The position numbers and the translations under genes are program-made. A stretch of DNA of 60,682 bases, the filler included, from Fonticula-like sp. SCN 57-25 (Eukaryota), in assembly GCA_001724245.1 (NCBI GenBank). It is 10 parts of 10 records of this genome, joined end to end, with 100 filler letters (N's around TTAATTAATTAA, not from the genome) between each part and the next. Parts side by side here need not be neighbours in the genome. Positions count along the whole stretch, not along the records: positions 19,943 to 25,685 come from MEDX01000523.1; 9 more parts are not named here. One strand, written 5' to 3'. The notes under the pieces are model-generated. The model saw only the letters and a list, made by a program, of their open reading frames with translations. It was not told the origin of the DNA and made no database searches. Below, one piece after another: positions 1,129 through 43,292 of this stretch (the first letter of the stretch is position 1; every line of letters starts with the position of its first letter).

Positions 1129-2822
1129 ATGTGGCGAGCGGCATCGGCGCGCTGTCTATTCGTGGCAGCGCGCTCATATAGACCTAGTGTTTCCCCGGCG
1201 CCTCGTTCTTTTTGGGGGGTTTCTCGCGGCCTTTCGAGTCATGCTTCACGCCCCCTTCTCATGAGCCCTGTGTCGGTATCGACCACGACGACGCTCACGA
1301 CGATGACGACTTCTAACGACGCGCCGTGCGACGCGCCCGTCAGCGAAGACGACCAGGTCGTCATTAACCCCGACGGAACCATCTCGCACGTGCAACATGT
1401 CCACGGCGGCGATCACGCGCATCATCACCATGGGGCGTCATCGACGACGACCACGCTGACGACCGTGGTGGAGGCGCAGACCTTTTACCGCCGCCCGCTG
1501 CCACCAATGCTGACAAGCTTCCAGTCGACCGAGGGCAAGAAGCTCTTTCGGAGGGCGCTCGAGGCAAACTACCTCGAGGCGTACTTTGCCCTGGCCAGTA
1601 ACTTTGTGACGCAAGCCGAGCCTGCATGTGCGCAGGGGATGATCAAAAAACAAATGTGTTGGCTTACATATTTGCGTAGATTGCGGTCTGTCGTGCCTGT
1701 CGATGGTGCTCAACACGCTTGAGGTCGATCCCGGGCGCAAGTGGAAGGGCATCTGGAGATGGTTCTCGGAAGAGATGCTCTCATGCTGCGCGCCGCTTTC
1801 CGTACGTGTAGAATGGTGTTATTTTTGGTTGTTTTTGGTGTCATTTTGTGCCATTTTTTAGCACTTTTTCCGACTTTTTACTGACATTTTTGCTCAGCGC
1901 GTCGTTTCCACCGGCATAACTTTCCTCGAATTCGGCTGCCTCGCCCAATGCAACGGCCTCGACGTCGAGTCCTTCCTCGCCGACCAGTCCTCCAAAGACT
2001 CCTTCCGCGACGCCATCCGCGCCTCCTGCTCGCGCACCGACTCTGTCCTCGTCGTTTCCTACTCGCGCGCCGCGCTCGGCCAGACCGGCGGCGGCCACTT
2101 TAGCCCCATTGGCGCGTACGACCCAATCAGCAACATGGTCCTCATCCTCGACGTCGCGCGCTTCAAGTACCCGTCCTATTGGGTGCATATTGACCGCCTT
2201 TGGGACGCACTGCAGCCGGTCGATGCGGAAACGGGACGGCCACGTGGATACTTTTTGCTGAAAAAGGCAGGTGGGAACGGCGGCGGCGGCGAGCAGAACC
2301 CGCCGGCGCTTGATCAGCTGGGCGTGTCACGTGACACGTGGCCGGCGGTGGCGGCGGCGCTGCGCTCACTTCGCGCGGGAAACGACCATTCAAAAGAAGC
2401 ACGTGCAGCAGCATGACGTCATGAGGGGTCTGCTTGGCCGCACTGCGTCACATGACGGCATTTCTGCGACCGTTTCAAAGTTGCGCGCAGTGTTGCCAAA
2501 AACAGCAACAATTTCCTTGAGCGATCACGCCAAGGCAATTATGTCTGAAGCAGCGCTTCACCCACTCTATTCCGTTGTTCGCTCACTTTCAACGGAAAAT
2601 AAAAGTGAAGATGCCGACGCGTGGATGACTGTGCTGCTGCTCGGCATGCCCACGTGGTTGAATTCGGCTGCACTTGCGCGGGAAATGGAGATGTTTGCGG
2701 CGGTGCCGACGAGCGTGAGGCTAAAGGGTGAGATTGGAAGGATGAGGCAGAGGATTGCGACTATTGAGAATTTGAGTTCGTGTAGGAATTGTGGGCCGGC
2801 TGCGTCGGGCGAGGGCAAGTAA
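1129..2822 (+). CDS. PCS1: Phytochelatin synthase (glutathione gamma-glutamylcysteinyltransferase)
   Basis: FYRRPLP, TQAEPA|YCGL (Cys, across an intron), [30 protein letters not shown] (His), [11 protein letters not shown] (Asp). C-terminal region continues in another frame after ~2410 (weak intron or frameshift), so the end could be 2416. Confidence 0.92.
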
Positions 2823-5213: not shown

Positions 5214-5442
5214 GGCGCGTCCACAATTTTGGCGCGTAATAGTCACGTGATTTCGAAAGTCGAAATCTTTTGAATCTTTGCAAAAGAACGACTGGGGACT
5301 TTCAATATACCCAGAATGTACCCAAAAGACGAACCAAAAAAGCAGAAAAAAATGTTAATAATATTCAATTGGTCACATATATTGTTTCTTCGTCAGAACT
5401 TACATATTCATTTTTCGCATTTTCGCTTTTCGCATTTTTCGC

Positions 5443-7647: not shown

Positions 7648-7965
7648 CGCCGACGCGCAGAGGAAGGGAAACAAAAGGGAATCGCGGTGGCATCGCCCTA
7701 TTGGCCCAGCGGCAGGAGAATTGATCCCATTGGACGAAATGGACCAATCAGATCTTTTGTTCGCAATGGAACAGAATGGAACAAAAAGGAACAAAAAGGG
7801 CGGCGGGGCGGTGTAAAAGCGCGCGCGAGCCTATTGATATTGAATTCCTTGCGTGGGAAAAATAGTATCGGAATATTTATAAACAAAGGACATTTGCCCC
7901 AATAATAGCGCGACCAAAAATGCCACAAGTACAACTAAAAGTCTATATGTACAACACTCGTTTGC

Positions 7966-8140: not shown

Positions 8141-8240
8141 NNNNNNNNNNNNNNNNNNNNNNNNNNNNNNNNNNNNNNNNNNNNTTAATTAATTAANNNN
8201 NNNNNNNNNNNNNNNNNNNNNNNNNNNNNNNNNNNNNNNN
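8141..8240. other. Artificial contig spacer (N44-TTAATTAATTAA-N44); also at 13995-14094, 19843-19942, 25686-25785, 31525-31624, 37361-37460, 43193-43292, 49025-49124, 54857-54956
   Basis: Identical 100-nt N blocks with a six-frame stop linker; genes are truncated at these points. Confidence 0.99.
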
Positions 8241-9992: not shown

Positions 9993-10242
9993 TAAGAGAA
10001 TTAAATAGGGAAAAGGAGACAATGTTTGTACACAATATGAAATACATGTTTATTCGAGACAAGGCAATGTTAGTTGTTTATATATAGTTGTTTATATTAG
10101 ATATACTATGTAGTGCTGTGAGTACACGGTGGAATTTGATACGATACATATTATACTATTGTGTGGCATAGCGTAGCCATGTGGCCGCGCAATATGCAAA
10201 CTGCTTCTAATAGACATTTATATGATAAACTAGGCAATTACA

Positions 10243-10593
10243 CTAGCTACTTTCTACTATTTTGTGGCACGATGTTCCTTGTACTTTTCTAGCCGCGGGC
10301 CATGTTGTTGGTGGATCCGCCATCGCGCTGCATGTCGTGCGGTGTCGTGTAGAGCAGCACGGGATCGTGCTTCTGCCTAAAATGCTCGCGTCAGCACAGA
10401 AGGTTAATAAATAGAGCAAGCGTACCGCGCTTCCTTGGAAAAGTTGTCGCCGCCGAGATCCTGCCGATGCTCATCCTGATGATGCTCTTGGCGAATCGTC
10501 TGCGTGTTGGACAGCTCGAATTCGTGCTCGTGCATCTTGTGGCTCTCGTCGTGCTCAATGGTCGCTTCCACTGCGTTCGCTGCCAGGTCCATG
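10243..10593 (-). CDS. Small His/Glu-rich hypothetical protein, one intron
   Basis: MDLAANAVEATIEHDESHKMHEHEF.., GTACGC donor, CTGAC..TTTTAG acceptor, TATATAAAG ~55 nt upstream. No recognised family. Confidence 0.4.
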
Positions 10594-11043
10594 GTAGGCA
10601 AGTGTGATGGTAGTAATGCTGCGAAGGGCGTCGACGCCCACCTGCTTTATATAGACAGTCACTTACGTCATCCATGTCAATCGCGTTTCAAACATGTCGG
10701 CTTGCAAAAAGGAAACTGAAAGAAAGGAAAGTATAAATAGCATTCATATAGCCTCTTTTATGTATTCATAGCATTTTTTCTGCGCATCCTTCGCCGATTT
10801 CTTATAGCCATTCATGCCATTCAATGCACCGCCGCCTTCCCGCGCACGTCCACGTGGCCATCACTCTTCCTCTCCACCCCGGATTCCGGGGTCAACCATT
10901 GTTTATTTACCCCAGACTCCGGGGTTCCTCTCGACCAATCAGCGCAGGCCAGGTCAGCTGTCTCTTTGCGTCTTTTTCCGCCGCCTTCCGTCCGCTTCTT
11001 ATTTGTTGTCTTCTCCCGCCCGCCCCCCCACCTCTGCTTGATC

Positions 11044-11343
11044 ATGGTGCGTCCCGCGGCGACAGCCATGCTCGCCAATGCGTCGACAGTTGGCTAACAG
11101 TGCTGTTTTGTGATAGGCTTCTTCTCCCCAGATTCGTGCCAAGGCTGCTCAGCATGCCAAGAACATTGACAAGCGCGGCCAGATCGTCAAGAAGAAGCCC
11201 GCTGTGACGAGCAATGTGGCGCCGGTGGTTGTCGGCTTCCTGCTCTTTGTCCTTCTTGGCTCTGGTGCGTAGCGCAGTCTTTATTTTATCTTGCTGACGC
11301 GTGTCTGTCATCAGCTCTGTTCCAGATGACCCAGGGCATGTAA
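11044..11343 (+). CDS. SERP1: Stress-associated ER protein RAMP4/SERP1/Ysy6 (about 60 aa, two introns)
   Basis: Absent from ORF track. Spliced M|ASSPQIRAKAAQHAKNIDKRGQIVKKKPAVTSNVAPVVVGFLLFVLLGS|ALFQMTQGM*: basic N-terminus plus tail anchor typical of RAMP4; both introns begin GTGCGT and end in YAG. Confidence 0.88.
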
Positions 11344-11617
11344 GCGGCATCCCTTGAGACGCCTTTCGGTGTCGTTTCACACAGTAGGCAGTTTTATTAC
11401 GCCCGCTAGTTTTGCGTGTCTTTCTCTTTGCTTAATTATGCTTTCTCCCGCCTAAAACCCCTTTGCCTATTCGATCGAGTCGGCTTTGCTGTACAATCAA
11501 GGGACTGTTTCTTTGCCTGCTGCCTGCGCACATTTGCCGATCTCGGACACATTTGTATTTGCGAATGTTTCATTTAATGTGTGAATAGAAATACAATTAT
11601 TACTCATTTAAGCGACG

Positions 11618-12926: not shown

Positions 12927-13175
12927 CTACACTGCCAGTCGTTCCTTCTCCGCCAACCGCGCCTCGAGCATTCCGTGCTGATCTGGAAGTGCATCATGCG
13001 TAGAGGCAGAACGCCAGAAAGAGGACAGAGCGCTTCCGCACGCAAGCCATGGCCCACGAACGCCAGCGCTGGGTCGCGTAAAGGGTTCAGGTACATGACG
13101 ACCACGTCGAGCGTCTGCCCTCGGCTTTTGTGAATGGTGAACACCCATGCCAGCGTCAGCGAACCTTTCCGCAGG
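12927..13175 (-). pseudogene. Degenerate PIF1-family helicase C-terminal fragment (possible Helitron-like relic)
   Basis: SLTLAWVFTIHKSRGQTLDVVVMYL..PALAFVG matches PIF1 motifs V/VI (LAWAITIHKSQGQTL..GLAYVALSR); frame breaks and no rest of gene. Confidence 0.65.
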
Positions 13176-14094
13176 TGAAAACATCACCATTAAGACACTC
13201 TCAGCAACCTCTGTGCCTCCTCTATGCTCGGGATTGTCAGACATTGTGGTTCAGGTAGATGCCACATGACCTTTTCCAGACCACCTACTCTCGCGTGGCG
13301 CGCGCGCCGCGCGCGCATGCCCGCGCGTGTAAGACTGAATAGCAATTATGCGCGACGACGCCAGTCGCGCTGCAAACAGTTTTAATGGTCGCTGAAATGT
13401 ACGCATGTGCGGGAATATGGTAATTGAATATATTAATTACCTGGAAAGAAGGTGGGGTATGGATGCCGTCCATCGATGCGACGATGCGTGCTCACCCACC
13501 GTGCCGCCCAGCGGCCCGGGCCTGCACGCGACTCAACGGCGCGCGCTGGCGCGCGCGCAACTTTGTAAGTATTGTGTCAAGTGCAAGCATGCCATCCGCC
13601 CCATATGTGGTGTATATACACCAATGCCGCTTTTGCCGTCAGTCGAACGTGCCAACCTGATCCCTGAGGCACAGATCGATGCAACAGCACGAAATCCGCC
13701 GCGGTCAATCTACTATAAAGAACCATGTAGGCTGAAGTGGCGCCAGTCATTGTTGTGTACGGCGACGATCCGTTTGTGTGCGGTGCTCGTTGGTGCTAGA
13801 TCGGCGGCAGGGTAGGGTGGTTGGAGGCATCTTTTGGCGTCCCCTGCGTTTCCCGCGGATTTACTGAAGAAATCGCATGCGATTTGTTCGTCCGAGGACC
13901 CATTTTTTCTTTTGCTCACAGCTCTATCAAATATTTTTTAAACGCGAAACCCTTGCTAGAACCAAAAGTTCTCATGGTACTCTATGTCCTGTGANNNNNN
14001 NNNNNNNNNNNNNNNNNNNNNNNNNNNNNNNNNNNNNNTTAATTAATTAANNNNNNNNNNNNNNNNNNNNNNNNNNNNNNNNNNNNNNNNNNNN

Positions 14095-17000
14095 TGCCAG
14101 GCGCCAGCATCAAGCAGAGCGCAAGTGACATTCACCTCATCCCGCGAAAGGATAGAAATGATCAACGCCGTGTTGCCGTCCGTGTCCCGGGCGGCGGGGT
14201 CTGCGCCGGCGGCGAGCAGCCGAGAAATGTCATCTACCGTGCCTTGGCGCGCCGCCCGGTGAAGCGGAGTGGTGCCGGCAGGCTCGGCGGGCTGCTGCTG
14301 CTGCTTAGGACCGGGGGTTCCCGCGGCCAACGCTGTCGGCGCCGGCAAAGACGCGCTTGGGAACGTCGGGTTTGCGGTAGAAACAGGTGCGCTGGACGAT
14401 TGGATAGACGCGGTTGCCAAAGAAGGAGGCACAATGTTCATGGCAGAGCTAAACTGCGACGCCAGATTGGTAACAGATGCCTGTCTGCGCTGCAGCTCGT
14501 CAAACGCGCCATCATGGAGCGCGCGCGCTGCATCATCAGAACCGATGAAAGCCTTGAGCTCCTGAACAATTGTTCTGAGCACAACCGGAGGCTGCCTCGC
14601 GAAACTCAGCGTGTCGCCTCCCATCATTCCGCGGCACATAATAAGGGTAAGCGCGCATTGATCGACGCCGGGGCCCTTGCGAGCAAGCTTGGCGGTGCGC
14701 TCCGCCTTGAACCACTCCCGCGTGCTTAGATAATCCTGAGCAAGCAACGCGCGCGCCACTGAAAGTCGCGCGTCGCCGCTGACCCACCACGAGACCATGC
14801 GCTCAAGACGTTTTCGCGCATCGGCAGCCTTGCCCGCGGCCGCGTCGCGCGCATAATGCAGCGATATCAGCTCAATGTCGCGGTCGATCAAAGTGTCGGT
14901 GCAGCACAGCGCGCGCATGGGGCTCGGGGGACACACGCCACCGTCCGAGCAGGGGTGATTGCCGGTGCAGACGACGCCGTGCTCGCATGTGAGAGTGCAC
15001 TTTTCGCTGCAAACAGAGTGTGCCTTGAGCGCAGTGCAGTCGTTGCACGTCGACTTGCACGTGTGGCCGCAGTCCATCGTAACGCCGCAGACCGCGGTGC
15101 ATGCGCCAACCTGCGGCGGCGATGCACCACAAGACGCCATGGCAGTGTGACGAACCGTGGCGCCGCATCCTGAGATTTCCTTCTTCACCTTGACCTTGCA
15201 GTCAGTAGGAAGGGTACATATGTCGGAGCAGATTTTGGCGCAGGCGTGTCCGCACGCTAGCTTCTTGCGGCAATTTTTCTTGCACACAGGGTCGCCTTGG
15301 TCAGCACACTTGACGAATGCCTTGTGGCCGCACGTGAGCGGCTTCATGATGCCATCCGTGCACCCTCCACAAACGTCGCCGCATTTCTTCTTGCAAGGGT
15401 GGCCGCAGGGATGCATGCGCTGGCAGGGCTCGTTGCAGTAAATCGCCAAGGCGGGAAGGTGGCCGGCACCGTGACACGTGGCCTTGCAAGGGTGACCGCA
15501 GGGAAGCGGTGCCCCACATGTTGCGCTGCAGGACACCTTTGCGACGTCGTCGCTGCACCTGACGCTGATGCGATGGCCACAGGCGGGGCGGTCGCGCATC
15601 ACCTTGGCAGGGCAAGGCGGGCATACATCGCCGCAAGAGGCGCGGCAGGGGTGCGTGCATGTCGGTGGGCGAGGGCGCATGCAAGGGTAACTGCATCGAA
15701 TACCTTCCTCGCCGTGAGGGGTCGGGTGGCACGTGAGCTTGCACGTGTGGCCGCAGTCGGGGAATGTTGCCAGGCAGAGCTTGCCGCAGCCGCCGAGGGG
15801 TGCGTTCAAAAAGTCGTCTGCATTGGTCACCTCCAGTTGCGAGTCATCGTGGGTCTTGCATGGCTGCAACACAAGCGACGGCCCGAGCAGGCGGCGCGCC
15901 TCCGCGTCGCCGCAGATCTTGTTCCAAAGCACCGATTTCTGGCGCAGCATGTCCATGTTGCCGATAACAAACATGCCATTGCGAGCGCGCGAGAGCGCCA
16001 CGCAAATGCGGTTCTCGCGCTTAAGGAAGCCAATATTACCCTCCTTATTGGATCGCACAATCGAAAGAATGATAATGTCGCTCTCCTCGCCTTGATAGTT
16101 ATCGGTCGTCACCACGCGCACATCCGCGATCGGGGAGAAATCCTTGTGTTTTAGCATCGACCTGATCAGCCTCACCTGACCGAGATACATGGTCAAAATA
16201 ACAATGTCTTTGACCTTGTACTTGTGGTACGTCAAGTAGAGCGCGAGGCGCGCAGCGATGCCCGCCTCGTGCTTGTTAATCTTGCTGCTGCTGACCTCGC
16301 CGCCGGCATTGTCCTCGGGCACTTGATGCGTCATGAAGAAGAGGCGATGGCACATGCCACGCACATCGGGGTGATTCAACGTTGAAGGGTCATCCTTAAG
16401 ATCCTTGTAAATGGACGGGCGAATAAGTGACGAAATGTCTGGATGCATGCGTCGCTGCGTCGTGAGGGTGACGTGCGGTAAACGCATATTGACAAATCGC
16501 TCAAAAAGCGACACGTCCAGCGAGTACGTTTGTGCGAGGTGAAACTCGCCGACCTGTGGCCGCAGCTGCAGGTGATCTCCAATGAGGATGACGTGCTTGG
16601 TCGCGGACGTCATGCACGCAACGACGTCAGCCTCACGCACTTCGGCCGCCTCTTCAACGATGAGCACCTCTGACCCAAGTTCTTTGAGCTGCTTGCGGTA
16701 CTTGGCGGCGCCGTTTGTTGTCAGGCCAATCACCCTGGCCGATGACAACAACATGGCGTCGCTGCGCGCGCGATGCGATGAAATGACATTGGCAATGTCC
16801 GCTGCCTGCTTGCGCAGCTCGGGCATCGCCAGCGCAGCATCGCGCACAAGAAGCTTGCGCCATGCCTTCACCAAGTGAACGCGGTCGCCCGCTGGGATGT
16901 CGCGGGCATGCGGTGGGTGATTTTGGCGCAGAGCGCGGACTTCATCGTCGCTGAGATCTGCGCTAATAAGAAGATCCGGCGATGTGCTGCGCTCGTTGAC

Positions 17001-19842
17001 GCGCTGCGCGAGTTGCTTTGCCTTGTCAATGTCATTTTGATAGGACGACAGCGGATCGTTGCCTAACCCAAACATATCGCGATGATAGGCGTCGTCATCG
17101 TCGTCAAGCTGGCGGCGCCTGATCTCCTCCAAATCTTCCTCTTCTTCAAAGTCATTGTCCGGCATTATATCATCCTTCTCAAAGGACTTTTTCGAGCCTG
17201 CTTGGCTGTCAAGTGAATCCTTCATCTCCTGAGCCTTTCTTCTGCTGTTCTTGGACTTGCGAACATCCTGCGAAAGCCAGTCGTCCACGATAGTCTCGTC
17301 CATGTGCGATATTAATGGATTGAATGAAGACATGAAAAGGGCAATGTCTTCAGGCGATAACTTAGCCCATTCGTCAAAGCCGCCTTGTTCGGGTGCCCAC
17401 TTCAAATAGCGATGCTCATCTGTAAATGAAATCGCGGCTTCAAGTGCCGCTTTCCAGGCCAAAAAACGTGTATCTTCCTTAGTCTGCTTGATAACCGAAA
17501 GCAGCACATTCGCCGCCTCTGTGCCAAATTCCTTCTTAATAATATAATAGGCGCGGTAGAGGAGGGCGTTGGAGAACGAGAACAGCGGATCGGCTAGACG
17601 GGACGCCCCGATACATTGCCGAATGGCATCAAACACTACGTCCTTGGAGCGCATTGCTTGATAAAACTCTTCCGGTGGGCGCAAGCGAGTCTTCTTGCCG
17701 TCCCTCGCGCGCTCAGCCATCGACAGCTTCTTCATCGTCTCCGAACTGGAGCGGCCACCAACGCGAATAATATCTTGCTCAAACTCATAGACGCGCTCCA
17801 GAATAGAGTCGAGAGCGTGATTGGTGAGGCACACAAACACGATGGGACGATCGCTGCGCAGCCCGGCGTTTGCGAGCAGAATGCGAGTCAGCAGCACGCC
17901 GATGAATGTCTTGCCCGTGCCCGGGGGGCCCTGAATAAGGGCAATACGCTGGGAAAGCGCCATCTTGATCGCGCTGCGTTGACTGGAGTCCAGCGAATAC
18001 AACCCTGACCTTTGCGGCAGCGCCGCTCCGACACCCCAGTTGTGAAGTCCGGGAAAGAGAGACGATAAATCCCATCCACGGCGTTCGCCGCCCTGCGAGA
18101 GGTACAACGGCGGCGGGATTTCCTGCTGCCGGCCAAGCAGCAGGTCCTCAAACGGCAGTCCACGGCTCGAGAATTCCTTGAGAGCCTCGAGGACGGGGCG
18201 AATCGAGTCAAAGAACACTGGTGACTCTAGCATGACGTAAGAGTGCGAGTCGCTAAATTCTTCCGTGTTCTCAACATTGATTGTGATCGCTGGAGCCTTG
18301 CCCTTATTTTTCTGGAGAGCCACGGCGTCAACCGACTTGACAACTGTCGCAAGAATGAGCTGCTCCGGAGAAAGCCCGACTCGATACTTGGGGCTGCTCG
18401 CCTCAGTCTTTGACTTGCCGTTATTCTTTGCAGGCAAAATAGCTGCCGGTGCAACGATGTCTAACGGCAAAAGGACCAACAGACTTCCCGTCATGAAACG
18501 CCTCGAAGCCGACCAGTCAACCTTGCGACCCGGGGTGACGAACGTCACTTCGTAGCCGACACCTGTACGGACGTCCTGCAGGGCGTTGATCTGCACGTCC
18601 AGGTAGACATTAATCCTGTCGTTCCCTCCGCCCGACATGGCCGCCGCCGTGTGCACAAGGTTCTCCTTTGTAATATCGCCTTCGGGCAACATATCCTTGA
18701 AACGCTGCAGCCCGCGACGCAGCTGCGCAATCGCCTCCTCTCGAAGAAGCTGAAAGTGCGTGTTGATGTAGTGGTGGGCGCTGCGGTACGTCACATCGGC
18801 CGCAGCCGGGAGGACCTCGCTGTGGTGCATTGCAGCCATGCTGGTATCCGCCGCCGCCTCGTCTTCTTCCTCGTCGCCATCGTATCCGCTTCGGGGCGGA
18901 AGGCGAGAACGCGACAATGCCGCGAGGATGGCAGGCAGCGCAGCTGGGGGGGGCGCAAAGAGCTCCTCGGACGTTGGCACCACGGTGAGCGCTTTGTAGT
19001 CCTCGTCGTGCAGGGGGTCATCAAGAATGCCGCGGCGTGACTGCTGAGCCGCGACGGACGTCAAGTCTGTAATCACCTTCATATCAGCCGAGCTCTTGTC
19101 CATCCGCGCGCTCTCCGCCCGCCGCATCATGATTTCAATCTTCTCCTGTAGTTCGGTGGCGCGCGCTGTGGTTTCGGCGCCAAAGGACTTGGAAAGCAAT
19201 CCCCACCGATCATCAATCGCCTCGATGGACAATTGAAAGCGCAACGGCGCGTCCGGGTAAAGCTCCAGAATGCGCTCCAAAGTCAGCACGGCATAGGACA
19301 GGCTCTGCGCAAGCTTTGGCCACTCTTGCTGCGTGACATCCATCCTTGAGGCGGAGCGACAGGCACCCTTCGAAACAGCAGTTTGGCAAAACTGCTCCAT
19401 AACCTTGCACCCTGCATCGTTGTTGAGTTCCTTGAGGGCGCTTTGCACATCAATGTGCGACAGAAACTGGCGGTCGCTAATCAGCTCAAGCAGCCGTTCG
19501 GCAATCTGGGCAAAATTCCCTGCCTCGCGAATAACCACGCGCCAGTTGTCGACCGAAGGACCACCGAGCTCGTGCACCATCTTGCTCGGCTCCCACTTTT
19601 TTACCTTGTCCAAGTACTTGAGTATGCTGGCCGGGTCTTCTGCCACAGCATCTCTCGTGGGGGGTGCGCGAGGAGAATCAGAGCGATGGGGCGACGATGC
19701 TGCTGCATCGGAGCGTCGGTACGTGATCGCAGCGTCAGAGCGACGAGGCGCGGGCGATGCTGCGTCAGAGCGACGAGGAGCGGGCGATGCTGCGTCAGAG
19801 CGACGAGGAGCGGGCGATGCTGCGTCAGAGCGACGAGGCGCG
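14095..19842 (-). CDS. ZNFX1: ZNFX1/Hrr1-like SF1 (Upf1-like) helicase with NF-X1 zinc fingers and C-terminal ankyrin repeats; truncated at both ends
   Basis: HFQLLREEAIAQLRRG, IQGPPGTGKT, CLTNHALD, IVEEAAE, IGDHLQLRP, SLFERF, DNYQGEESDIIILSIVRSN, NRICVALSRAR; multiple CGHxC..C repeats; GTTPLHRAARQG..GADPAARDTDGNTAL. Frame stays open upstream of the tracked GTG to the contig end. Confidence 0.9.
19676..19842 (-). repeat. 30-bp coding tandem repeat (AASPAPRRSD)n
   Basis: gcgtcagagcgacgagg(c/a)gcgggcgatgct about x4 plus degenerate copies, in frame with the helicase ORF. Confidence 0.9.
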
Positions 19843-19942
19843 NNNNNNNNNNNNNNNNNNNNNNNNNNNNNNNNNNNNNNNNNNNNTTAATTAATTAANN
19901 NNNNNNNNNNNNNNNNNNNNNNNNNNNNNNNNNNNNNNNNNN

Positions 19943-21508
19943 AGTCGAATTCACCTGAACCATAGTCAAAATCCAAATCGCAGTTGATTGAGAGAGTGTC
20001 GGTATCTTTAAAAAAATTGACCCAATTTGAAAACACTTTCAGGCTGGCGATACTGCAAACTATACGTGTACAGATGTGTTAACCGTGGCAATACAAAAGT
20101 ATCATAAACGGATACGCACTAGAAATACCAAGACGGCGAAGTTTATCATGTTTGCATAACAAAGATAAGGCATCACATAGCGCGGATGCGACATGCGGAT
20201 CCGATATATCGCCTATTCCAAAATTAGATGCATTGGCATTAAACTGCCCATTCTGTACCAATTCTCAACGTGTTCAAAGTGCGAAGCGTAGCGAGGGATT
20301 GCGCCAAAGAATGCATACTATAGCCAGTAAACCGACAATCTACCAGCAATGTAAGTATCAAGTACTAAAAGAGGCAATGAAAATTTCGTACCGCTCATAT
20401 TTAATTCCCGAATAGATGGGTGGTTGAGCAATCCTGCTGCAAATCCATCCATCGCATGATTCGTAATTGATCGGTTCCCTGAAATATAATAGTAAGAAGT
20501 GGGACATGTCAACCGCAATAACGTACCAGAAACATCTAGTTTTCGAAGCGACTTACATTTCTCAAGCACGTGACCCAGTCCACTTGAGCTCCAAGCAAAG
20601 TCGCAGCCTAACCATAAAAAATATAAGAAATATACGAAAATAAGTAGAAATATGAATACCGCTAAGATCCAACTCTGACAGTGCACTGCAACGAGCCAGG
20701 CCGTCAGCAAGCGCCGCTAAGCACGCGGGGGACATTTTGACACCTATATGGCAATTAGAAGCAATAATGACAAAGCGACAAACGTACCATAAAGGTCCAA
20801 AGAGACCAGCGAAGTGGGTAGAGACTCGCAAAGCGCGGCGCCGTTATTGAGACAATAACCTAAATCGTGTCAGTACAAAGCACAGCGAAGAAAACGCCGC
20901 ACAAAATAAACGAAAATGCGTCACTGAGCAACGCTGAAAGCAGGCAATAAGAGATTCAACCACCATAGGATGCACCTCAACATCATTTTGCATGTCGTCG
21001 TTTTCTGCGTGGTGGCGGGTTAGGATATGTCGATGGCGACCAAACGGCGCTCCGCACCCAAAGTGATCTCTTCCAGGCTGTTGCACATGCCCAGTAGAAC
21101 ACAGAGACTCTCGTGCACCTCCAATGACTTGGGCACTACTTTGGCGTTAGCAATATACAGCTGAACGAAAAGCGGGTACCTTTCACGCGGAGGCGAAGTA
21201 TTTGTGAAGGGTTTGGCGAACGGAGCACGGAATCCACATATTCCTTCATCAGTACAGGGTTGTCTTTGGGTTTCCCAAATTCAAGCGACAAATCTTCAAC
21301 GAAACGATTTTCACGTAGGCAATCGGCCAGTTTGCCCAAATCACCCATTTCAAATGAACGAATAAGATCTACCTTCCACGTTAGCAGCCGCTCGAAACCA
21401 CGCGAGCGCCGTACTGACTGCAATTTTCTTGGCGCTGGACGCCCTGGCCCAGTCAACGCCACTACTTTCCCCCCTCCATATAAAACGAGACTGCCGCTCC
21501 TGCGCCAT
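19943..21508 (-). CDS. RNI-like leucine-rich-repeat protein, multi-intron, 3' truncated
   Basis: Exons LADCLRENRFVEDLSLEF, LAALADGLARCSALSELDLS, LEKCKSLRKLDVS|GNRSIT..GLLNHPSIRELNMS, LCKHDKLRRLGIS, separated by short GT-AG introns, roughly one repeat per exon. Start codon tentative. Confidence 0.75.
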
Positions 21509-23020
21509 CGGAATAAACCTCTTAAAAAAGACCGAGAACGATTCGAGCAACACTTGGTTTGTAGGCTGTTCGGGGAAAAGCAGGGGAAAAGACGTTGGCG
21601 CAGTCTGGACGGACGAAAACGAAGAGCCGGTAACCAGGGCAGAGTCAGATGTGTTTTTACGGTGACGTCACCGTGGATCGTGCTCTTTCTTCCCACGTGG
21701 CCATTTCAAACCCACCCATCACCACAACCGTTGATCAGCGGGTGGCACAGCGTGACAGCGGTACCGAGCTACGTCATCATGCGACACAAGTGGTCACGCA
21801 CATCTTTCCATGTGTGCGTACACTGCGGCAACAAGTTAGGCTACAAGAGCTGTCTCGATCGCTACTTGCTCGACTGCTTGTAAAGCGCGCATCTCCCGAC
21901 CAGCTCCCGCAAGAATGTCTGGATTGCAATTAGAGACTTACCTGGCGCGAATTTTTATACGCCCAATTTTTTGAACACCTTGAGTTCACTTGAACTGGGC
22001 TGCCGGTATTTCTTATGGCGCGCAGTCCGAGCTCCGGAATGTCCCCTTCGATGGAAGTTTTCGCTGATGAGAGCGATCATCTGTGCGCCGCCGCCGCGCT
22101 TGTGCAGGCAAGCCAGCCCACTAGTTCACTAGTGCTCACTTTTCATTCCTGTGCATTCAAGTGCCGCTGCGGACGCTTTCGACTAGACGACGTTAGGCGA
22201 TGAGAATCGGTGGAATGCCTCGCTCCGTCTGCGCCGGCAACTTGCGATCCCTTATGACCGACGCGTAATCGCTCTGTGCTCGCTCTCTTGAGACGAGCTT
22301 GTTATCCGCAGAGGTATTTGAGGACGCCTTCAACCAGCTTGTTCTTATCTGGACGCTTTCTTGGCAGCGAGCGGCTTGCGGCGTGTTCCCCGGCAGCCAA
22401 CGAGCGGCTTGCGGCGTGTTCCCGTGTCAGCCAACGAAACTTGCCTCTTTGCCGCTGTGTTTCGCACGACCGACCTGGCAGTCGAGCAGCTGGTGCAGGC
22501 AATGAAGAGCGCTATGTGCACGTTCGACGTTTAACAAATGAACCCCACGCTGCGTAACGCCGATCCGAGGCGGCTTCAGCAGGAGGCAACCACGGTTGTC
22601 ACGCGGCGGCTTCCAATTTATATGCGTGGTAGTGCACGCGCTTCCACACACCTTACCCCCAATTGCGTTCATTGAGCGATTTCGCTTTTCGTGCTTTGAG
22701 GCGCGAAGGCCGATGGACTGCGCATGGTTCGCAAGCGCCTTGTAAACAGGCTGGATGTCGACGGATGAATCCGAGTTTTCGGCAGCGACGAGTCTGGATT
22801 ATAGTACTATGGAGCGGTCATTTGTGTACGTTGTTCTGTAAATGGAAATTGTATTTTATGAAATTGTAATGTATTGAGGTACATATGTCAATCGCGTGAT
22901 TACTGGTTCACTGCAAATACTCGTAACCACCAAAAGCATGGCCAGCCAATAAATAGACATACCGTATCCGTATGATACTGGTTTTGGTTATTGCATCATT
23001 GTCGAGAAATACAACAAAAA

Positions 23021-25685
23021 TTATTGTGCATTGCCAATGGGGGCAGGAAAATCAACCATCTGCGCCGTCACCAACTTGGATTCACGAATATCGCTCGTCG
23101 AAACGCTCGAAAGTTGCACTCCCTGCAGGGTTCTCAGACCCACCTTTTGGATGCGCCTTACTACCATGTCCACTAGATCGCTGTCAAGTGTAACCTGGTC
23201 ACTTCGATAGCCTGAAATACGGAGCGCTTTAACCAAAGTACTGCGTTCGGTAAAATAAGACGAAGCCGCGTCCCCCTTCGCATTGCGGACGAAATGGCCG
23301 TCGACCTTTTTATAAGGCACACCATCGGTATCAATTCCGTAGAACACCGGGATGATAAGCGGATACGACACGTCGCAAAACTTAAGCCCGCGTCGTCGAA
23401 GAATTTCCATTGCTCGTTGTATCTCGGCATTAATTGGACCCTCCATGGCCTTCCTCCAACGATTCCGACGTTTTGCAAAAATTGCTGCTTCTCGACAGCA
23501 CCACTTGCTCTTGTAATATTCCTCGGACAACACCATCACACAAATGGGCGCGGTCAAGCACAAGTGATCCATCTTGGCGTGCGGATCGGTCCCTGCGTCG
23601 CAATTTTTCTCATCAAGAAATGTACTAAAACCAGCCGCTTTCAGTAAAGAATCCAAGGTGGACGCAAAATTGCTCTTTTGCGGGCCCGCGTGACTGATAA
23701 ATACATCGCAGCCGGTATGCTCTGACTTGGGAGGGTCAAGCAACCCAGCGCCCTCGAGAACTAGATACCATTCCCATCCATGCATACACGTGTACTTTGG
23801 ATCTATAAGTACGAGTTAAGCAAATGCTTCAATTGAGATGCAAGCGTACCATCGTCGTGTTTAATGGGCGTGCCACCCCGCAAAATAACCAATTTGTCCA
23901 TCTGATCGCGCTCAACATCTCGACGAAGTAGCCAATCATCACACGGCACTGTGGCCGTTCCATCCCCATTCATGTAAATAGCACGCGGCTTGCCCTTGTC
24001 ATCCCAATTTTCCAGCGTACTGCAAGACTGCAGAATTTCGTCGAACAAAATGCCTGGGTAACCTTTTAAACATTCACGCACAGCGTCGTTGATGAGTTCC
24101 AATAGATCCACAGAACACCGCCTAAATAACGTAAAACCACGAACATGTATCAAAAGCCGTTGTATTTCACCAAATTTCGTAGAAACCGTTTCCGTGTGGA
24201 TTCGCGCGTGCGTTTGTAGGTGTATCTTCGAAAACATAACTGCTTCGTTGCGATATGGCGTAAGGTCTGACACCTTTCCTGACAGCATCCAAGTGAGCAC
24301 ACCAATTATCCCCTGAGGAAGCATATCCATTTCAAAGCCATATGCGAGCTCCAAGTCAATTGCATGCGACTTCGCCGACCATTGTTTTCCATTCGTTGAA
24401 TCATAACTTAACAGAAAATCAGGAAACAATAGCTTATTCTCCTGTTTCATTGCGAAGCACACCTGCATACCCTCCAAATATTTAACCATGTCGTCAAATA
24501 TATCGCCCAATCGGTCGTTCGATTCAGAATTGGATACGTTAAATAAATCCCCCGTTCCCTTAAACGATGTAGACCATACGATCCTTAAATCCTTGACTGA
24601 AAGTTCGCCGCATGTACTCAGACTGGTGGCATCCGGAAGGCAAAGCTGACTGAGTGCACACTGAGTCAAAAACGTCGGCTTCAAAACCACGTGATCATTT
24701 CCATCAATGTAAATGGCGCGTCCCCAGGAACCTAGTCGATGCAGCGCAATACCCATATCACCATCACTCATTGATTCTTGTTCTAAAGAGGGGTTTAGAC
24801 GGGAAACCAGCTAATACGCCAAGCATAACAATGACCATACCTTTTAAATCCTTCAGCGAAATCATTGGCTGACTGCACGTTGATACCGCCCTTAGCACAG
24901 TAGCATGCTTCTTGCTCATCAGCACTGAAACACGCGACAGAGCGAGGAGACGCTTGCTCAAATTCCTGATAATGTCCGAAACGGCATAAGGGGTTCGTTC
25001 AAGTTTGATCGCCTGAGCATCCTTCGAGTGGTCAAACCGCACCGCGTCCAATGTCGACGCGCTCATTTCGAAATGTTCCCAATCGTAACCAAGCATGGAC
25101 TCATCAATACACTTTCGGACATCACTCTTACGAAACGCCAATTGAACGCGGAGCGACACACCTTCCGCATCCAAATGTGTACCCACGACATAAATGAATG
25201 TGCGCTGTTTCACTTCTTCCTCGAGATCTTCCGCCTTGGGAAGGTGCGCCTTTAGAGTGCGCAGCCAATACATCAAATAAGTGCAAATCTCCTGTCGGCT
25301 CTTGCTCGCATCATATACTATCATGTAAACTGATTGGTCGTGCAGAAACGATGCGCGTCCACTCGCAAAATGCTGATGATTTCCAAAATAGGCACGCTGA
25401 CCAGCGAAATCCCATGCAGAAACAGAAACGCCCTCAACATAGTGCGTCCGAACATCAATGCCGTGCGTGCGGTGGGGCAGTGGCTTCTTGACAACAGCAT
25501 CTGCATTGGCCGTTTCGGCAGCGCATGTTTCAACAATTTCGCGAAGCATGTCATGCCACCGCTTGGCCTCCTGCTCATTGGAAAACGTGACATTTGTATC
25601 GCCAATCCACATCGATTTGCCTTGCAGCGATAGCGACAGCTCTGCATCCAAAGTAAACGTGGGATTCAACCACCCTTGCAATTGC
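23021..25685 (-). CDS. ROCO-type protein: Roc GTPase - COR - TIR; 5' truncated
   Basis: RTHGID (switch I), WDFAGQ (G3), VVGTHLD (G4), COR-like HVVLKPTFL and LPQGIIGVL, TIR DVFISHAG..FLD..VLSEEYYKSKWCCRE. Three tracked ORFs join in frame through introns 24840-24783 (GTATGG..TTTAG) and 23849-23803 (GTACGC..GCTTAAC..TATAG). Confidence 0.88.
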
Positions 25686-25785
25686 NNNNNNNNNNNNNNN
25701 NNNNNNNNNNNNNNNNNNNNNNNNNNNNNTTAATTAATTAANNNNNNNNNNNNNNNNNNNNNNNNNNNNNNNNNNNNNNNNNNNN

Positions 25786-28700
25786 TGCTTCTACAACGGG
25801 ACGTGGTCGGAGGTGACCAACCCGTGCTCGACAAACCCGTGCGTTGCGCTGACCAACGACCAGCACGCGAACTGGCCAAAGGCGGAAGACGTGAACACGG
25901 TTGTGAACGGCACCTGCGTGGGCGGCTACTCCTCGACCGGGAGGCCGTCGCGCCTCTGCATGAACGACGGCAAGTGGGACACGACGATCACCAACCCCTG
26001 CACGCCAATCTTCTGCACCAAGACGACGCCGGGCTACCTGCCGTTCAACGCTGACTGGCCGGAGACGCTGCAGGCGGGCTATTCTACTTCGGGAACGTGC
26101 GCCGCCGGCTACACGGGCACGACGACGCGCAGCTGCTCGCTGACCGGCCAGTGGAACACGCCGTCGCCACTCTGCAGCCAGATCGTGTGCCCTTCGATCC
26201 CGGATGACGGCGCGCACGCGTCGTGGTCGTCCACCGCGGCCGGTAACACGGCCACGGGTACGTGCCTTGGCGGTTACGAGGGGACGCCGCAGCGCGAGTG
26301 CTCGATCACGGGTCAGTGGGGCGCTGTTACCTCGCCGTGCGGCCCCAAGAAGTGCGGCGCGCGTTCGGACGGCAACGCGGACTGGCCCGAGACGCTCGGC
26401 GGCGTGACTGTGTCGGGCGTGTGCCAAACCGGCTTTGCGGGCGTTGTGACGCGCACGTGCTCGTCGGACGGCGTCTGGAGCCAGATCTCGGGCTCGTGTG
26501 ATGCGCTCGCGTGCCCTGCTGTGACGATCAACAACGTCATCTGGCCTGTGACGTCGTCGGGGTCGTTTGCTGTTGGCGAGTGCGCGGCCGGTTATGGGCC
26601 GTCGTCGCCAGGCCCATCGCGCTTCTGCACTGCCAGCGCGACGTGGGACGCGCCGACGGGTTCGTGCACGCGTCGCCGCTGTGCCGCGGGGACGTACCAG
26701 TCTGCGACGTGGCCGTTGGTTGACTCGATGACGGACGATGTCCGCGGGACGTGCATTGAGGGCTGGCAGGGCGTGCCGCTGCGCAACTGCTCTGCGGATG
26801 GGACGTACTCGTCGACAGTGTTGAGCCCATGCACGCGGATTACGTGCCCGGCTGTGGATGATGGCGCGAGCGGCTCGTGGGATTCTACGGATAGCGGGAC
26901 GCCCAACGTGCCCGGCACGTGCCCTGCCGGCTCGACCGGCTCGCCTCTGCGCGACTGCCGCTCGGACGGGTCTTGGACTGGCATCGTGGGCTCGTGCACT
27001 GTGCTGACGTGCGCGCCGCAGTCGCTGGACCACGTGAACTGGCCTTCGACGCCTGCTGGCGGTGTTGCCGCGGGCGTGTGCGACACTGGGTACGCGGGCA
27101 GCCCTTCGCGGTCGTGCGGACTGGACGGTTCGTGGGGCGCGGTGAGCAACCCGTGCGTTGCGCTCCAGTGCGCTGCGCTGGAGGAGGAGAACGCCGACTG
27201 GCCGCTGTCGGCCGCCCTGTCGAGCCCGGTGCACGGCACGTGCATCCCTGGCTACATCGGCTCGCCGACGCGCGGATGCGAAGCGACTGGCGTGTGGGGT
27301 CCTATCCACAATCCGTGCACAGCGGTGATGTGCCCCGCCGGTCTGGCGGACAACGCCAACTGGGTCGAGACGCGCGCCGGTGACGAGGGGTATGGCGAGT
27401 GCGTGAGCGGGCTGACGGGCGTGCCGCGGCGCGCGTGCCTGCTGTCGGGCGCGTGGAACACGACGGTTGTCGACCCTTGTCGCATCAAGTACGACAACTG
27501 CCTGAGCGAGTCGCTGGACGGCATGTTCTTCCCGGAGGCAGAGCCTGGGTCGTCGAGCGTCGGCTCGTGCGGCTACGGCTTTGGAGAGTCTCCTGCTGGT
27601 CCGCCGACGCGCGAGTGCTTGGAGAATGGCACATGGGAGGAATCGTACAGCAATGCCTGTGTCTACGGTATGAAATCTGATACTCAATCGCACGCGTTGA
27701 CTAATTTTTGCCTTTCAGTTCCCATTTCGAGCGAGGACGGTGTGTACAATCTCACAATTGTGAGCAAGACTTCAACCAGCGCCATCTTGATTTGGAATTC
27801 CCTCAATATTACAGTCAACACCACGTTCCGCGCCGAGATTTCCCTGGGCTCGAGCTCCTATGTGATTGCCAATGCCAATTGTGCGCCATGATGCAAGTGG
27901 AATCTGCGCTAACTCTCCCTTTAGCCGCCGTTGATTTCACCGATACCCGGATTGAAATCCGCGGTCTGTCGCCCAACACGTTCTACTACTTCCGTGTCAC
28001 GAGGGGCGAGCGGAACTGGGGAGGATACAATGATGACTCCGGTGCCATTATCTCTACGACCACGTATATTCAGCCCGCCACAGCATTGCGCCTCGAAGAC
28101 TCGACGACGACATCTCTCACTTTTAGCTGGACGCCGTCTGCGCAGGCCGAGTTTTACGCCGTGTACACTCGCCCGATTGATGCCACGCGCGACGTCACCG
28201 ATGGTTTTGATTTCCATTCTCAGGTCGACTCGTCGGTCGGCCAGGTGGAGGTGTCCGGCCTGTCGCCGGGCAACGTCTATGAGGTGCTTGTGCTTGCCGG
28301 CAAGGATAACCAGACGGAGCAAGTGGGCGCGCGCATGATCATCACGACCAAGTCGTCTACCGATAACGTCGTGGTCGACCCCGGACTTGGCACGAGCGGC
28401 ACCGTCATTGCGGGCGCCAGCGCCGCCGGTGTCGTCGTCTTGATTGTTATTCTCGTTGTAGTTGTGGTGATCATTCGCCGTCGGCAGCGGGAGACGCTCA
28501 AGAGGCTGGACGAGTTTGGCGGCTCCGACGCGATGACCGCGTTGCACGCCTATCGCAACACGCTGGCCAACTCGCGGAGCAGCATGCGCCACGCCGACTC
28601 GACGACGCACCTGTGGCAGGCCGACAAGACCGTGGTAAACACGGCGATGGAGATTGCCCTGCCGGGCTTCTTGCTGGTTGACTATGCGACGACGGTGCAG

Positions 28701-29549
28701 CCCGGCGAGCTGGCCCATACGGGCACGGGCGAGACCGAGTACAACGCGACCGTCATTGACCCTCACGTCGCTACGCGCGTCGGCTTTACGCATGTTATTA
28801 TGCGTGACTATGATGACCACCCGCAGCTCACCGTCAAGGAGAACGACGCCCGCTTCCACCGCGAGGTCTCGATCATGTGGTCGCTCTCCTTCCACCCCAG
28901 CATTACCAAGCTCTTGGCATACACGGAGGAGCCGCGCACGGTGATGACACGCGCGTATTTGTTCAACCTCACGCGCTTTGTGCAGACGTCCCCGCGTCCA
29001 TTGCCCGAGCACCAGCTGCATCGCCTCGCCGCCGACATTTCTTCCGCCGTCACCGCCGCGCACTCGCTCGGCGTCGCCCATCGCAACATCCAGTCCGCCA
29101 ACATTTCCATCGAGCAACCGACTGGCACCTCGCAGCTGTTCACGGCGGTTCTTGGCGGGTTCAGCCAGGCGCGCTCGGTGGACGACGGCATTGCGTACCT
29201 GCCCCCTCAGCACATCAACGTCCGCTTTACCGCGCCCGAGGTGCTCCAGGCGCTCGAAGACGAGGAGCATATCGATCCCGGTGTGACGACCGAACTCGCC
29301 TCGGACATCTTCTCGCTCGGTGTCGTGCTCTACGAGCTCTCTACTGGGTCGACGCCGTGGGACTCGCTCCCCGACGAGGCCGTCAAGAATGCCGTCCTCA
29401 GCGGCAAGTTGCTCGTGCCCGAGGCTCTGATGGACACTGCGCTGCACCTGGCCCTTTCCAGCGTCGTCCAGGCGGCGCTCATGTTCGAGCCGAGCAGCCG
29501 CCCGGCGGCGGCGTTGATCAGCGCCAAGATCGCATCAGTTTTGGAGTAG
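25786..29549 (+). CDS. Single-pass receptor: Cys-rich Sushi/HRM-like repeats, FN3 domains, TM helix, TKL-type (pseudo)kinase; 5' truncated
   Basis: About 11 repeats WPxT..GxC..GYxG...RxC...GxW....C; FN3 (GLSPNTFYYFRV, GLSPGNVYEVLV); TM VVVLIVILVVVVVII-RRR; kinase subdomains RFTAPEV, SDIFSLGVVLYEL. Introns 27668-27718 and 27881-27924. Confidence 0.88.
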
Positions 29550-31524: not shown

Positions 31525-31624
31525 NNNNNNNNNNNNNNNNNNNNNNNNNNNNNNNNNNNNNNNNNNNNTTAATTAATTAANNNNNNNNNNNNNNNNNNNN
31601 NNNNNNNNNNNNNNNNNNNNNNNN

Positions 31625-36949: not shown

Positions 36950-37515
36950 GTCGGGGATTGTCGCAGGGGATGCCGTCACGTGATGTGGTTTTTTGGATTC
37001 ATCACGTGAGAAGTTAGAAAGGAAGAGCACTAATGGTACCTATGCATGCTGGGTCAAAAAAAAGCATAGAAAAAGAAGTCAAGGCATAATAGTAAAAGGT
37101 CTAGGTGTCACACAAAGCAATTATTTTGCTTGCACTATATTTGATAAAGTTACTTTGCGCCGTTCTCATTTTCGCATTTTGCGGTGTTTTGGGTCAAAAG
37201 CGTAAATCACGTGACGAATCAGGCAGAGTCCCGGTGACTGCGCACAGACGCGATGCCCGACCCACGGTGCGCTCACCTATGATCATCCGGCCACGTGGTT
37301 CAAATTCCAAAGTGAACTGATCAAATCAAGTCAGTTTGTACCCGGCGACGAGCGGATGTCNNNNNNNNNNNNNNNNNNNNNNNNNNNNNNNNNNNNNNNN
37401 NNNNTTAATTAATTAANNNNNNNNNNNNNNNNNNNNNNNNNNNNNNNNNNNNNNNNNNNNATGATGAGAAGGAATGCTGTGAGTGTGCTGTGTATGTTCA
37501 TGTACCGCTGCCGCC

Positions 37516-43192: not shown

Positions 43193-43292
43193 NNNNNNNN
43201 NNNNNNNNNNNNNNNNNNNNNNNNNNNNNNNNNNNNTTAATTAATTAANNNNNNNNNNNNNNNNNNNNNNNNNNNNNNNNNNNNNNNNNNNN

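Follow-up and report, generated by a model that had tools for sequence, protein, structure and literature searches.

Proteins that combine a Roc GTPase, a COR domain and a TIR domain have been recorded in bacteria, in a red alga and in Aplysia, and are described here after extracts of the respective reports. Bacterial leucine-rich repeat (LRR)-AP-GTPase(Roc)-COR proteins carry at least 24 C-terminal effector domains, TIR among them, and are presented as conflict, counter-invader systems (Kaur, Iyer, Burroughs, Aravind 2021, PMC8195603). Among eukaryotes, a TPR-ROCO-TIR protein is reported from the red alga Chondrus crispus, and the LRR-ROCO proteins of brown algae are regarded as candidate immune receptors (PMC11378527). 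In Aplysia californica, ROC-COR was found in silico in TLR-, MyD88- and TIR-domain proteins (PMC9334734). Given these records, the ROCO-TIR architecture itself is not new. In this work we analyzed a 60,682-base stretch of DNA (the window) from the assembly of Fonticula-like sp. SCN 57-25, one contig of which (19943..25685) encodes a Roc-COR-TIR protein. As judged by comparison with related contigs, a genuine spliced nuclear gene is present at this locus with its 3' 2.6 kb; it comes from a microbial eukaryote found in bioreactor and wastewater metagenomes. We favor, with moderate confidence, the reading that its product is a Roc[PH-like]-COR-TIR protein with a nucleotide-switched, NAD+-cleaving TIR that acts as a defence or cell-death effector; the gating, the NADase activity and the immune role are inferred by analogy.

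Gene structure and conservation of introns

Three neighboring stop-free frames of 281, 311 and 259 codons were found on the minus strand at 24764..25729 (running into an N linker), 23803..24810 and 23021..23815. The DNA has a G+C content (GC) of ~48%. Each frame is conserved as protein in independent contigs, and a chance origin of three adjoining open frames is not an issue. Splicing of exons 25684..24841, 24782..23850 and 23802..23024 gives 2559 nt in one frame with no internal stop, and a product of 852 residues that ends at the stop codon TAA (23023..23021). Exon 1 (24841..25685, minus strand, as for all parts of the gene) lacks its 5' part, which is cut off where the contig ends, and includes the end of a PH-like insert, the Roc domain from switch I to G5 and the start of COR-A. 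Exon 2 (23850..24782) encodes the remainder of COR-A, COR-B and a linker, and exon 3 (23021..23802) the TIR domain and a weakly constrained tail up to the TAA. The exons are separated by two GT..AG introns of phase 1, namely intron 1 (24783..24840; 58 nt, GTATGG...TTTAG) and intron 2 (23803..23849; 47 nt, GTACGC...TTATAG).

Since none of the six runs listed for the gene is an RNA run, both introns were judged by comparison. When metagenomes were scanned with the family alignment of exon 2, 69 stretches matched, of which 11 were confirmed as loci (L001-L011). The first of them, L001, is an independent 3,082-bp contig with the same three-ORF (open reading frame) gene, and its spliced product is identical to that of the window at 388 of 626 positions (62%). 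Intron 1 recurs in L001 (240..297) at the same site, in the same codon phase and with the same length of 58 nt; 34 of these 58 nucleotides are identical, compared with 71% in the exons. Intron 2 also lies at the same site (1207..1254) with 48 nt versus 47 nt in the window. Due to this one-nucleotide difference, ORFs 2 and 3 share a frame in L001, with a stop between them, but occupy different frames in the window. Both genes splice in frame despite the intron indel, which points to a non-coding spacer rather than to a frameshifted pseudogene. The relatives P0001 and P0002 translate through the intron-1 site as hydrophobic junk beginning with G/C-M-V, while P0005 (471 aa) contains a COR-like region and TIR in a single unbroken ORF. 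An alternative acceptor for intron 2 at 23761 was ruled out: its use would delete YTCMHGWEWYLVLEG, which is conserved in L001 and P0005. None of the eight joints listed in DNA runs X1, X3, X4 and X5 coincides with either intron; these runs consist of DNA contigs that are uninformative on splicing, and the eight joints fit diverged paralogous contigs.

A sequence-only reading of this locus had joined the three frames into one gene through two consensus introns. The shared sites in L001, the preserved frame and the single COR-TIR ORF of P0005 argue for this join. Its coordinates and its W-C-C-R-E motif were also correct, but that reading mentioned neither the minus strand nor the truncation of the gene's 5' end at a contig break.

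The same ORFs could be relics of a decaying or non-functional copy in a fast-turnover family, from which no full-length protein is made. The family is indeed multi-copy and mosaic, with diverged copies in the same run; P0001 has no P-loop Lys; no RNA run is listed for the gene; and the last 85 residues, the C-terminal tail, evolve neutrally between the window and L001, with a ratio of nonsynonymous to synonymous substitution rates (dN/dS) of ~1. We nonetheless consider decay quite improbable, given the 852 stop-free codons once spliced, the intron sites and spliced frame kept at 62% protein identity despite the 1-nt indel, and G2-G5 and TIR motifs that are all intact. Over their whole length, the same two genes give a dN/dS of 0.41, and the values for the COR exon (0.32) and the core of the TIR domain (0.34) are lower still.

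Roc domain and its PH-like insert

In exon 1, Pfam detected Roc at E 6.9e-7 and 30 bits (cut-off 27), with only positions 30-108 of the 119 in the profile covered. The G domain from switch I to G5 extends over 25034..25486 and includes the switch I Thr of HRTHGID (25468..25466), WDFAGQ (25414..25397), GTHLD (25183..25169) and SAS (near 25063..25055). Motifs G2-G5 are intact within the window, and their columns are invariant in all eight aligned sequences.

The upstream part of the domain is available from P0011, an ENA protein of 399 aa encoded on a 6,454-bp contig of another assembly (Pfam Roc, 39.2 bits). Residues 94-399 of P0011 are identical to the exon-1 ORF of the window (306/306, translated intron included), and the 93 residues upstream of them supply the pre-Roc linker and the P-loop GFAEVGKTT (G1). 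An alignment of the linker was obtained with 4wnr, a prokaryotic Roco chain (E 1.3e-5). When P0011 was compared with the PDB by phmmer, 27 sequences were matched. LRRK2 accounts for 25 of these, 24 by name and one (8smc_C) under a generic kinase name with the same 1201-residue construct as the LRRK2 entries; the other two are an archaeal Roco-like 'Leucine-rich-repeat protein' and ARL3. With LRRK2 or Roco making up 26 of the 27 matches, P0011 resembles Roc more than it does other small GTPases. No NB-ARC or NACHT domain was found by Pfam in the three exons and P0011, which gave Roc and TIR only. In the paralogue P0001, GLSEVGTTT (residues ~40-50) replaces the P-loop GxxxxGKT and the Lys is lost, so P0001 may be a nucleotide-binding-deficient member of the family or may contain a sequencing or assembly error.

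Between the P-loop helix of Roc and switch I, P0011 contains a PH-like fold of ~90 residues (residues ~53-156). The sequence-only reading overlooked both this insert and the missing P-loop. The C-terminal ~63 residues of the insert (P0011 residues 94-156) are encoded in the window at 25496..25684 on the minus strand. The phmmer alignment of P0011 with LRRK2 Roc is split accordingly into residues 37-65 (P-loop region) and 171-265 (switch I onward), and the distance from the P-loop stretch to switch I is ~105 residues in P0011 versus ~19 in LRRK2. The AlphaFold2 (AF2) model of P0011 has a mean predicted local distance difference test score (pLDDT) of 52.4, with the insert as its best-modelled part (block pLDDT up to 92; for residues 61-150 the blocks score 75, 69, 61, 44, 72, 92, 89, 80 and 65). 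In this model, DSSP assigns strands to residues 62-68, 71-78, 81-86, 102-104, 111-114, 117-120 and 123-127 and a helix to residues 130-154; seven strands with a capping C-terminal helix would correspond to the pattern of the PH-like superfold. A VIA-align search against 48,161 chains, independent of Foldseek, is consistent with this prediction: all 50 of the 50 matches listed belong to the PH superfold (PH, PTB, EVH1, Ran-binding and FERM F3), with Z of 8.4-9.7 and 74-100 residues aligned. The Pfam PH family has no match in P0011.

The insert is present in 8 of 8 aligned relatives, some of them only 27-29% identical, and in the ORF of locus L010. Unspecified insertions within some brown-algal ROC domains are mentioned in the extract of PMC11378527. 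In a literature search judged by title and abstract, no description of a PH domain inside Roc was found. If real, the modelled insert is a new feature of ROCO GTPases that is conserved across the clade. It would then represent a new structural solution for the control of a ROCO GTPase, and might inform the regulation of Roc-COR, the core of LRRK2.

Divergent COR domain

The middle region of the gene is so divergent that Pfam gave no match to exon 2 at E<=0.1, which counts against a COR call from the window's own sequence. HMMER found only five proteins at E<=0.001 when exon 2 was searched against 1.84 billion representatives. These include the window's own ORF and the genuine relatives P0001, P0005 and P0006. 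The fifth, P0004 (2903 aa, E 2.2e-20), is a long protein of tandem repeats whose many matches all fall on query residues 129-167, and it was rejected as an artefact.

Evidence for COR comes from the family. Searched against the PDB, a profile of five sequences (A1) scored best with the COR of 3dpu, 3dpt, 6hlu and 8r4b (E 9.6e-7 to 5.8e-6, ~178 positions aligned), ahead of any unrelated chain. These chains carry the name 'Rab family protein', which we take to be Chlorobium tepidum Roco. Furthermore, relatives that align end to end with the window gene pass the Pfam thresholds: P0006 for COR-A (40.6 bits, cut-off 35.3) and COR-B (29 bits, cut-off 27), and P0012, P0013 and the 903-aa ORF of L010 (35.4 bits) for COR-A. 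Because both the family profile and the relatives qualify as COR, exon 2 is a divergent COR-A/COR-B on this comparison, though the window copy alone would escape the call. The approximate extent of the domain, mapped from the alignments with 3dpu, 3dpt, 6hlu, P0012 and P0013, is 24010..24919 (minus strand), split by intron 1. The order Roc, COR and C-terminal TIR proposed from the sequence therefore stands, with Pfam evidence for Roc and TIR and evidence from family profile and relatives for COR; a domain check by profile models, as suggested with that proposal, recovers Roc and TIR_2 but leaves COR undetected in the window's own sequence. A predicted complex of two copies of exon 2 scored 0.00, with the alignment unused, and is evidence neither for nor against COR dimerisation.

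TIR domain

Exon 3 scored well above the Pfam cut-offs for TIR_2 (E 2.8e-14, 54.1 bits, cut-off 28) and TIR (E 2.3e-10, 41 bits, cut-off 21.3). The TIR domain occupies 23147..23716 on the minus strand and aligns in two stretches (query 16-93 and 135-205) with the TIR of AT1G72930 (3jrn). The W-C-C-R-E motif lies at 23489..23503, with Trp at 23503..23501 and the catalytic-type Glu (GAA) at 23491..23489. This Glu aligns to that of WCLDE in AT1G72930, and all five aligned family sequences have it. Four of the five also have the Trp four positions earlier, where P0005 has Tyr. The earlier call of an intact WCxxE Glu thus agrees with the plant alignment and with its conservation in the family.

A phmmer search of exon 3 against the PDB returned 28 sequences at E<=1. 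At E<0.01 there are 20 plant and bacterial TIRs, headed by AT1G72930 (4.8e-6) and followed by TcpB/BtpA, PdTIR, AbTir, RUN1, RPP1, RPS4, ROQ1 and L6. Seven weaker matches comprise one plant NADase and six SARM1 TIRs (E 0.31-0.46), and the remaining one is a non-TIR protein (8i9j). The AF2 model of the domain is of low confidence (mean pLDDT 51.4); the Foldseek matches listed for it are all TIR domains, including SPARTA, RPP1, RUN1, RPS4 and AbTir. In SARM1 and in the NAD-cleaving TIRs of plants and bacteria, this Glu is the catalytic residue. We classify the TIR as the enzymatic plant/bacterial type, putatively NAD+-cleaving. Literature searches that combined Roco and NADase returned unrelated papers only.

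A different role for the same gene would be that of an ordinary signalling GTPase, with the TIR as a non-enzymatic adaptor that recruits TIR proteins homotypically in the manner of TLR and MyD88. The domain has ~30 additional residues after the catalytic-Glu helix and before the following strand, which might perturb the active site, and the Aplysia proteins with ROCO and TIR are classed with TLR- and MyD88-like signalling proteins in the extract of PMC9334734. Yet the 28 PDB sequences, which are plant and bacterial TIRs, SARM1 and the single weak non-TIR, include neither TLRs nor MyD88-type adaptors; the Glu is conserved throughout the family and the Trp nearly so; and no second TIR gene was seen on the contig. 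We therefore regard an adaptor role as unlikely.

Paralogous family and eukaryotic source

The TIR-bearing clade consists of the window gene with P0011, L001 with P0007, P0001 with P0008, and P0002, P0009, P0010 and P0005. Three more distant paralogue types, found on JGI contigs (L002-L011), have the Roc[PH]-COR core in common with it, but in place of TIR they carry a C-terminal region that is related among them and has no Pfam match. For instance, the L010 copy (4759-7470, plus strand) is a 903-aa ORF with no introns in this part, and L009 contains a further Roc[PH]-COR relative (9818-11515, plus strand). The ORFs upstream of both look LRR-like, with Pfam LRR_6 at E 0.0024, below the cut-off.

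The ROCO relative P0013 ends in a stretch (residues ~700-895) with a YGMGIYFS motif. In the ESM Atlas, its C-terminus is nearest to PARP clusters at 0.77-0.78, below the 0.9 bar, and this serves as a lead only; the C-terminus of P0006 gave no usable lead at the same bar. Pfam found nothing meaningful in the C-terminal parts of P0013 and P0006, the sole match being Bac_transf at E 0.24 in P0013. If true, the PARP lead would add a second NAD+-using effector to the same chassis.

Within the TIR clade, a comparison in 30-residue windows shows P0009, P0010 and P0011 to be mosaics of each other. P0009 equals P0010 over the first ~120 and the last ~95 residues and equals P0011 in between, which reflects either exchange between paralogues or alleles, by recombination or gene conversion, or chimeras formed during metagenome assembly. 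Diverged copies also occur in run X1, the best DNA match. The gene stretch is present in DNA runs labelled bioreactor metagenome and wastewater metagenome, and identical 151-nt pieces were also found in two runs labelled fungus metagenome.

Several features of the relatives bear on the source of the gene. A Ty3-like retrotransposon polyprotein is encoded on the contig of a relative: in L009, reading of the translation identified a polyprotein frame of 1,569 aa (12983-17692, minus strand) and, near the ROCO relative, a transposase-like ORF (7077-7913, plus strand). Pattern scans of 185,579 prokaryote genomes, which see close relatives only, confirmed 0 of 29 matches with the Roc alignment and 0 of 28 with the TIR alignment.

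These results leave very little room for a bacterial LRR-Roc-COR-TIR conflict gene, mis-binned or recently transferred, whose 'introns' are frameshifts or assembly errors. Such a gene would accord with the extract of PMC8195603, where the architecture is best documented in bacteria, and with the nature of the window, a bin of short metagenome contigs whose GC, taken in 2-kb steps, varies between 0.455 and 0.653. Both gaps, on the other hand, begin with GT and end with AG and recur at the same sites with differing lengths in independent contigs; the best DNA run contains identical contig pieces in which the gaps are likewise not closed; and apart from the one repeat-protein artefact, none of the five exon-2 matches looks bacterial. 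Neither the prokaryote scans nor the retrotransposon polyprotein fits a bacterial source, and we find this explanation scarcely credible. By these comparisons the source of the gene is eukaryotic, and the earlier argument that host-type introns speak against bacterial contamination is strengthened by the conservation of the introns and by the retrotransposons on the relatives' contigs. The protist host named in the same reading is a candidate only, given a contig from a metagenome bin.

Other features of the window

The window is made up of 10 pieces (~5.7-8.1 kb each) joined by nine artificial linkers of the form N44-TTAATTAATTAA-N44, with 18 runs of 44 N flanking nine TTAATTAATTAA copies. 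The linkers are located at 8141-8240, 13995-14094, 19843-19942, 25686-25785, 31525-31624, 37361-37460, 43193-43292, 49025-49124 and 54857-54956. As the pieces are concatenated short contigs of one bin with varied GC, adjacency across linkers is meaningless. Position 25685 is a contig end, so the sequence to its right belongs to a different contig of the bin and is unrelated to the gene.

Downstream of the gene on its own contig, several short ORFs at 20083-21705 (minus strand) contain ribonuclease-inhibitor-like LRR motifs (LSELDLSG, LRKLDVSG). They are broken as if by introns and are weakly matched by Pfam (LRR_4 E 0.038). From their motifs, they could be the N-terminal repeats of a second, tandem ROCO gene that runs off the contig. 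In tblastx comparisons with the 11 relative loci, the downstream 3 kb of the contig had no match at E<=1e-3, and no second ROCO copy was found in the window.

Other pieces of the bin encode proteins of various kinds. An HSP90 frame (5443-7830, minus strand, E 2.1e-184) is a possible phylogenetic marker if the bin is trusted. Frames for DOMON with cytochrome b561 (47515-48924, minus strand) and for septin (58104-59213, minus strand) are, like that for HSP90, eukaryotic in character, in agreement with a eukaryotic source. One contig is spanned entirely by an unbroken frame of 1,915 codons (14097-19841, minus strand) for a ZNFX1-domain superfamily-1 helicase (AAA_11/AAA_12) with C-terminal ankyrin repeats. 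On the contig that follows the gene's own in the window, a long frame of Cys- and Trp-rich repeats (25786-27891, plus strand) precedes a frame with fn3 and protein kinase domains (27705-29549, plus strand), and the two may form one receptor-kinase-like gene.

Proposed mode of action

In ROCO proteins, COR dimerises and the dimer is altered by the nucleotide state of Roc, while TIR enzymes need self-association for activity. By analogy with other ROCO proteins, the Roc-COR tandem of the present protein would serve as a nucleotide-dependent dimerisation switch. The trigger might be a change of nucleotide state, or a signal received through the N-terminal repeat region (off the contig) or the PH-like insert. 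The COR dimer would then rearrange and bring two C-terminal TIRs together; once self-associated, these would cleave NAD+ and cause its depletion or generate ADP-ribose-derived signals, with cell-autonomous defence or cell death as the output. Overall, such a protein would work in an NLR-like manner, with a Roc-COR GTPase replacing the STAND ATPase.

A number of observations weigh against this mechanism. The 5' end of the gene is cut by the contig end, which leaves the P-loop and any N-terminal repeats off the contig; the P-loop attributed to the gene is borrowed from the identical overlapping P0011 of the other assembly. Loss of the P-loop Lys in P0001 implies that GTP binding is not required of every member. 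The dN/dS values of 0.3-0.4 denote purifying selection with moderate constraint only, the C-terminal tail is neutral, and the gene appears in no RNA run. The extra residues behind the catalytic helix may affect the enzyme, and the AF2 models are too poor (mean pLDDT of 51.4 and 52.4) for any active-site geometry to be read. Finally, the contig carries one other gene only, to which no family is assigned, and no genomic context on it hints at immunity.

A wider reading, which we put forward as speculative and rather doubtful, is that in this uncultured eukaryotic lineage a ROCO GTPase, and not a STAND ATPase, became the central switch of an NLR-like receptor family. Under it, a common LRR-Roc[PH]-COR chassis would bear interchangeable C-terminal effectors (TIR here, possibly a PARP-like, NAD+-using domain in P0013, and an unassigned domain in the JGI paralogues of all three types), recombination between paralogues would drive the diversification of the family, and the PH-like domain by switch I would couple membrane or ligand binding to nucleotide state. 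To our knowledge, such PH-coupled regulation of a Ras-like GTPase has not been described before.

Comparison with known systems

The present value of the locus is limited by a gene that is incomplete on its contig and by a functional reading drawn from analogy, and the comparisons below apply to the parts at hand. The bacterial LRR-AP-GTPase-COR proteins, as extracted, share with the window gene a Roc-COR unit followed by a C-terminal effector slot that can hold TIR. The relatives of the window gene likewise bear other, non-TIR C-termini after Roc-COR, and the stretch that precedes Roc in P0011 matches 4wnr, a Roco from a prokaryote. Unlike the bacterial proteins, the window gene is eukaryotic with spliceosomal introns, its Roc is split by the PH-like insert, its COR is too divergent for Pfam, N-terminal LRRs, which evolve rapidly in the bacterial systems, are not seen on the 5'-truncating contig, and no close prokaryotic relative was found in the genomes scanned. 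The sequence-only reading, which held that Roc-COR-TIR is best known from prokaryotes, is borne out as far as bacterial precedent goes; it overstated the novelty, given the eukaryotic ROCO-TIR proteins of Chondrus crispus and Aplysia in the extracts cited above.

Compared by description and not by sequence, the algal ROCOs of the extract resemble the present family in being multi-copy, shuffled and proposed as immune receptors, and Chondrus also provides a eukaryotic ROCO with TIR. The window gene has no visible TPR, in contrast to the Chondrus protein, and while the brown-algal ROC insertions are unspecified there, the insert described here has a predicted PH-like fold at a fixed site. The Aplysia proteins, again by description, unite ROC, COR and TIR in one eukaryotic protein. 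As animal proteins they are read in the extract as adaptors or receptors and include accessory MBT, EF-hand and Death domains, whereas the window TIR matches plant and bacterial enzymatic TIRs by sequence.

LRRK2 and Chlorobium tepidum Roco are the best solved matches, the former for Roc (2zej, 6ojf and others) and the latter for COR. The G3 (DxxGQ) and G4 (THxD) motifs are common to LRRK2 and the window Roc. In contrast to LRRK2, the window gene has no kinase, its C-terminal position being held by TIR, and the long spacing between P-loop and switch I seen in P0011 replaces the short one of LRRK2.

The plant TIR-NLRs (RPP1, ROQ1, RUN1) and the bacterial TIR NADases are the top sequence and fold matches of the window TIR and have the Glu in the same TIR helix. 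In plant TIR-NLRs, as in AbTir, BtpA/TcpB, PdTIR and SPARTA TIR-APAZ, an oligomerisation module is coupled to TIR, much as we propose for Roc-COR. The window gene differs from plant TIR-NLRs in having no NB-ARC/STAND ATPase and in a TIR that is C-terminal rather than N-terminal, and from these and the bacterial enzymes in the extra residues behind the catalytic helix. A TNL-like mode of working may be conceivable on these likenesses, but the window gene is not a member of the STAND NLRs.

Plants couple their TIR NADases to STAND ATPases, SARM1 joins its TIR to SAM/ARM domains, and bacterial TIR NADases have a wide range of partners. If true, a eukaryotic family that places Roc-COR ahead of an enzymatic-type TIR would serve as a natural experiment in which another nucleotide switch controls TIR assembly, and as an independent case for a common logic of prokaryotic and eukaryotic cell-autonomous immunity. 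Set against all of these systems, what appears distinct here is the PH-like insert by switch I, a COR that has diverged to an extreme degree, and effectors that seem to have been swapped within one uncultured eukaryotic lineage.

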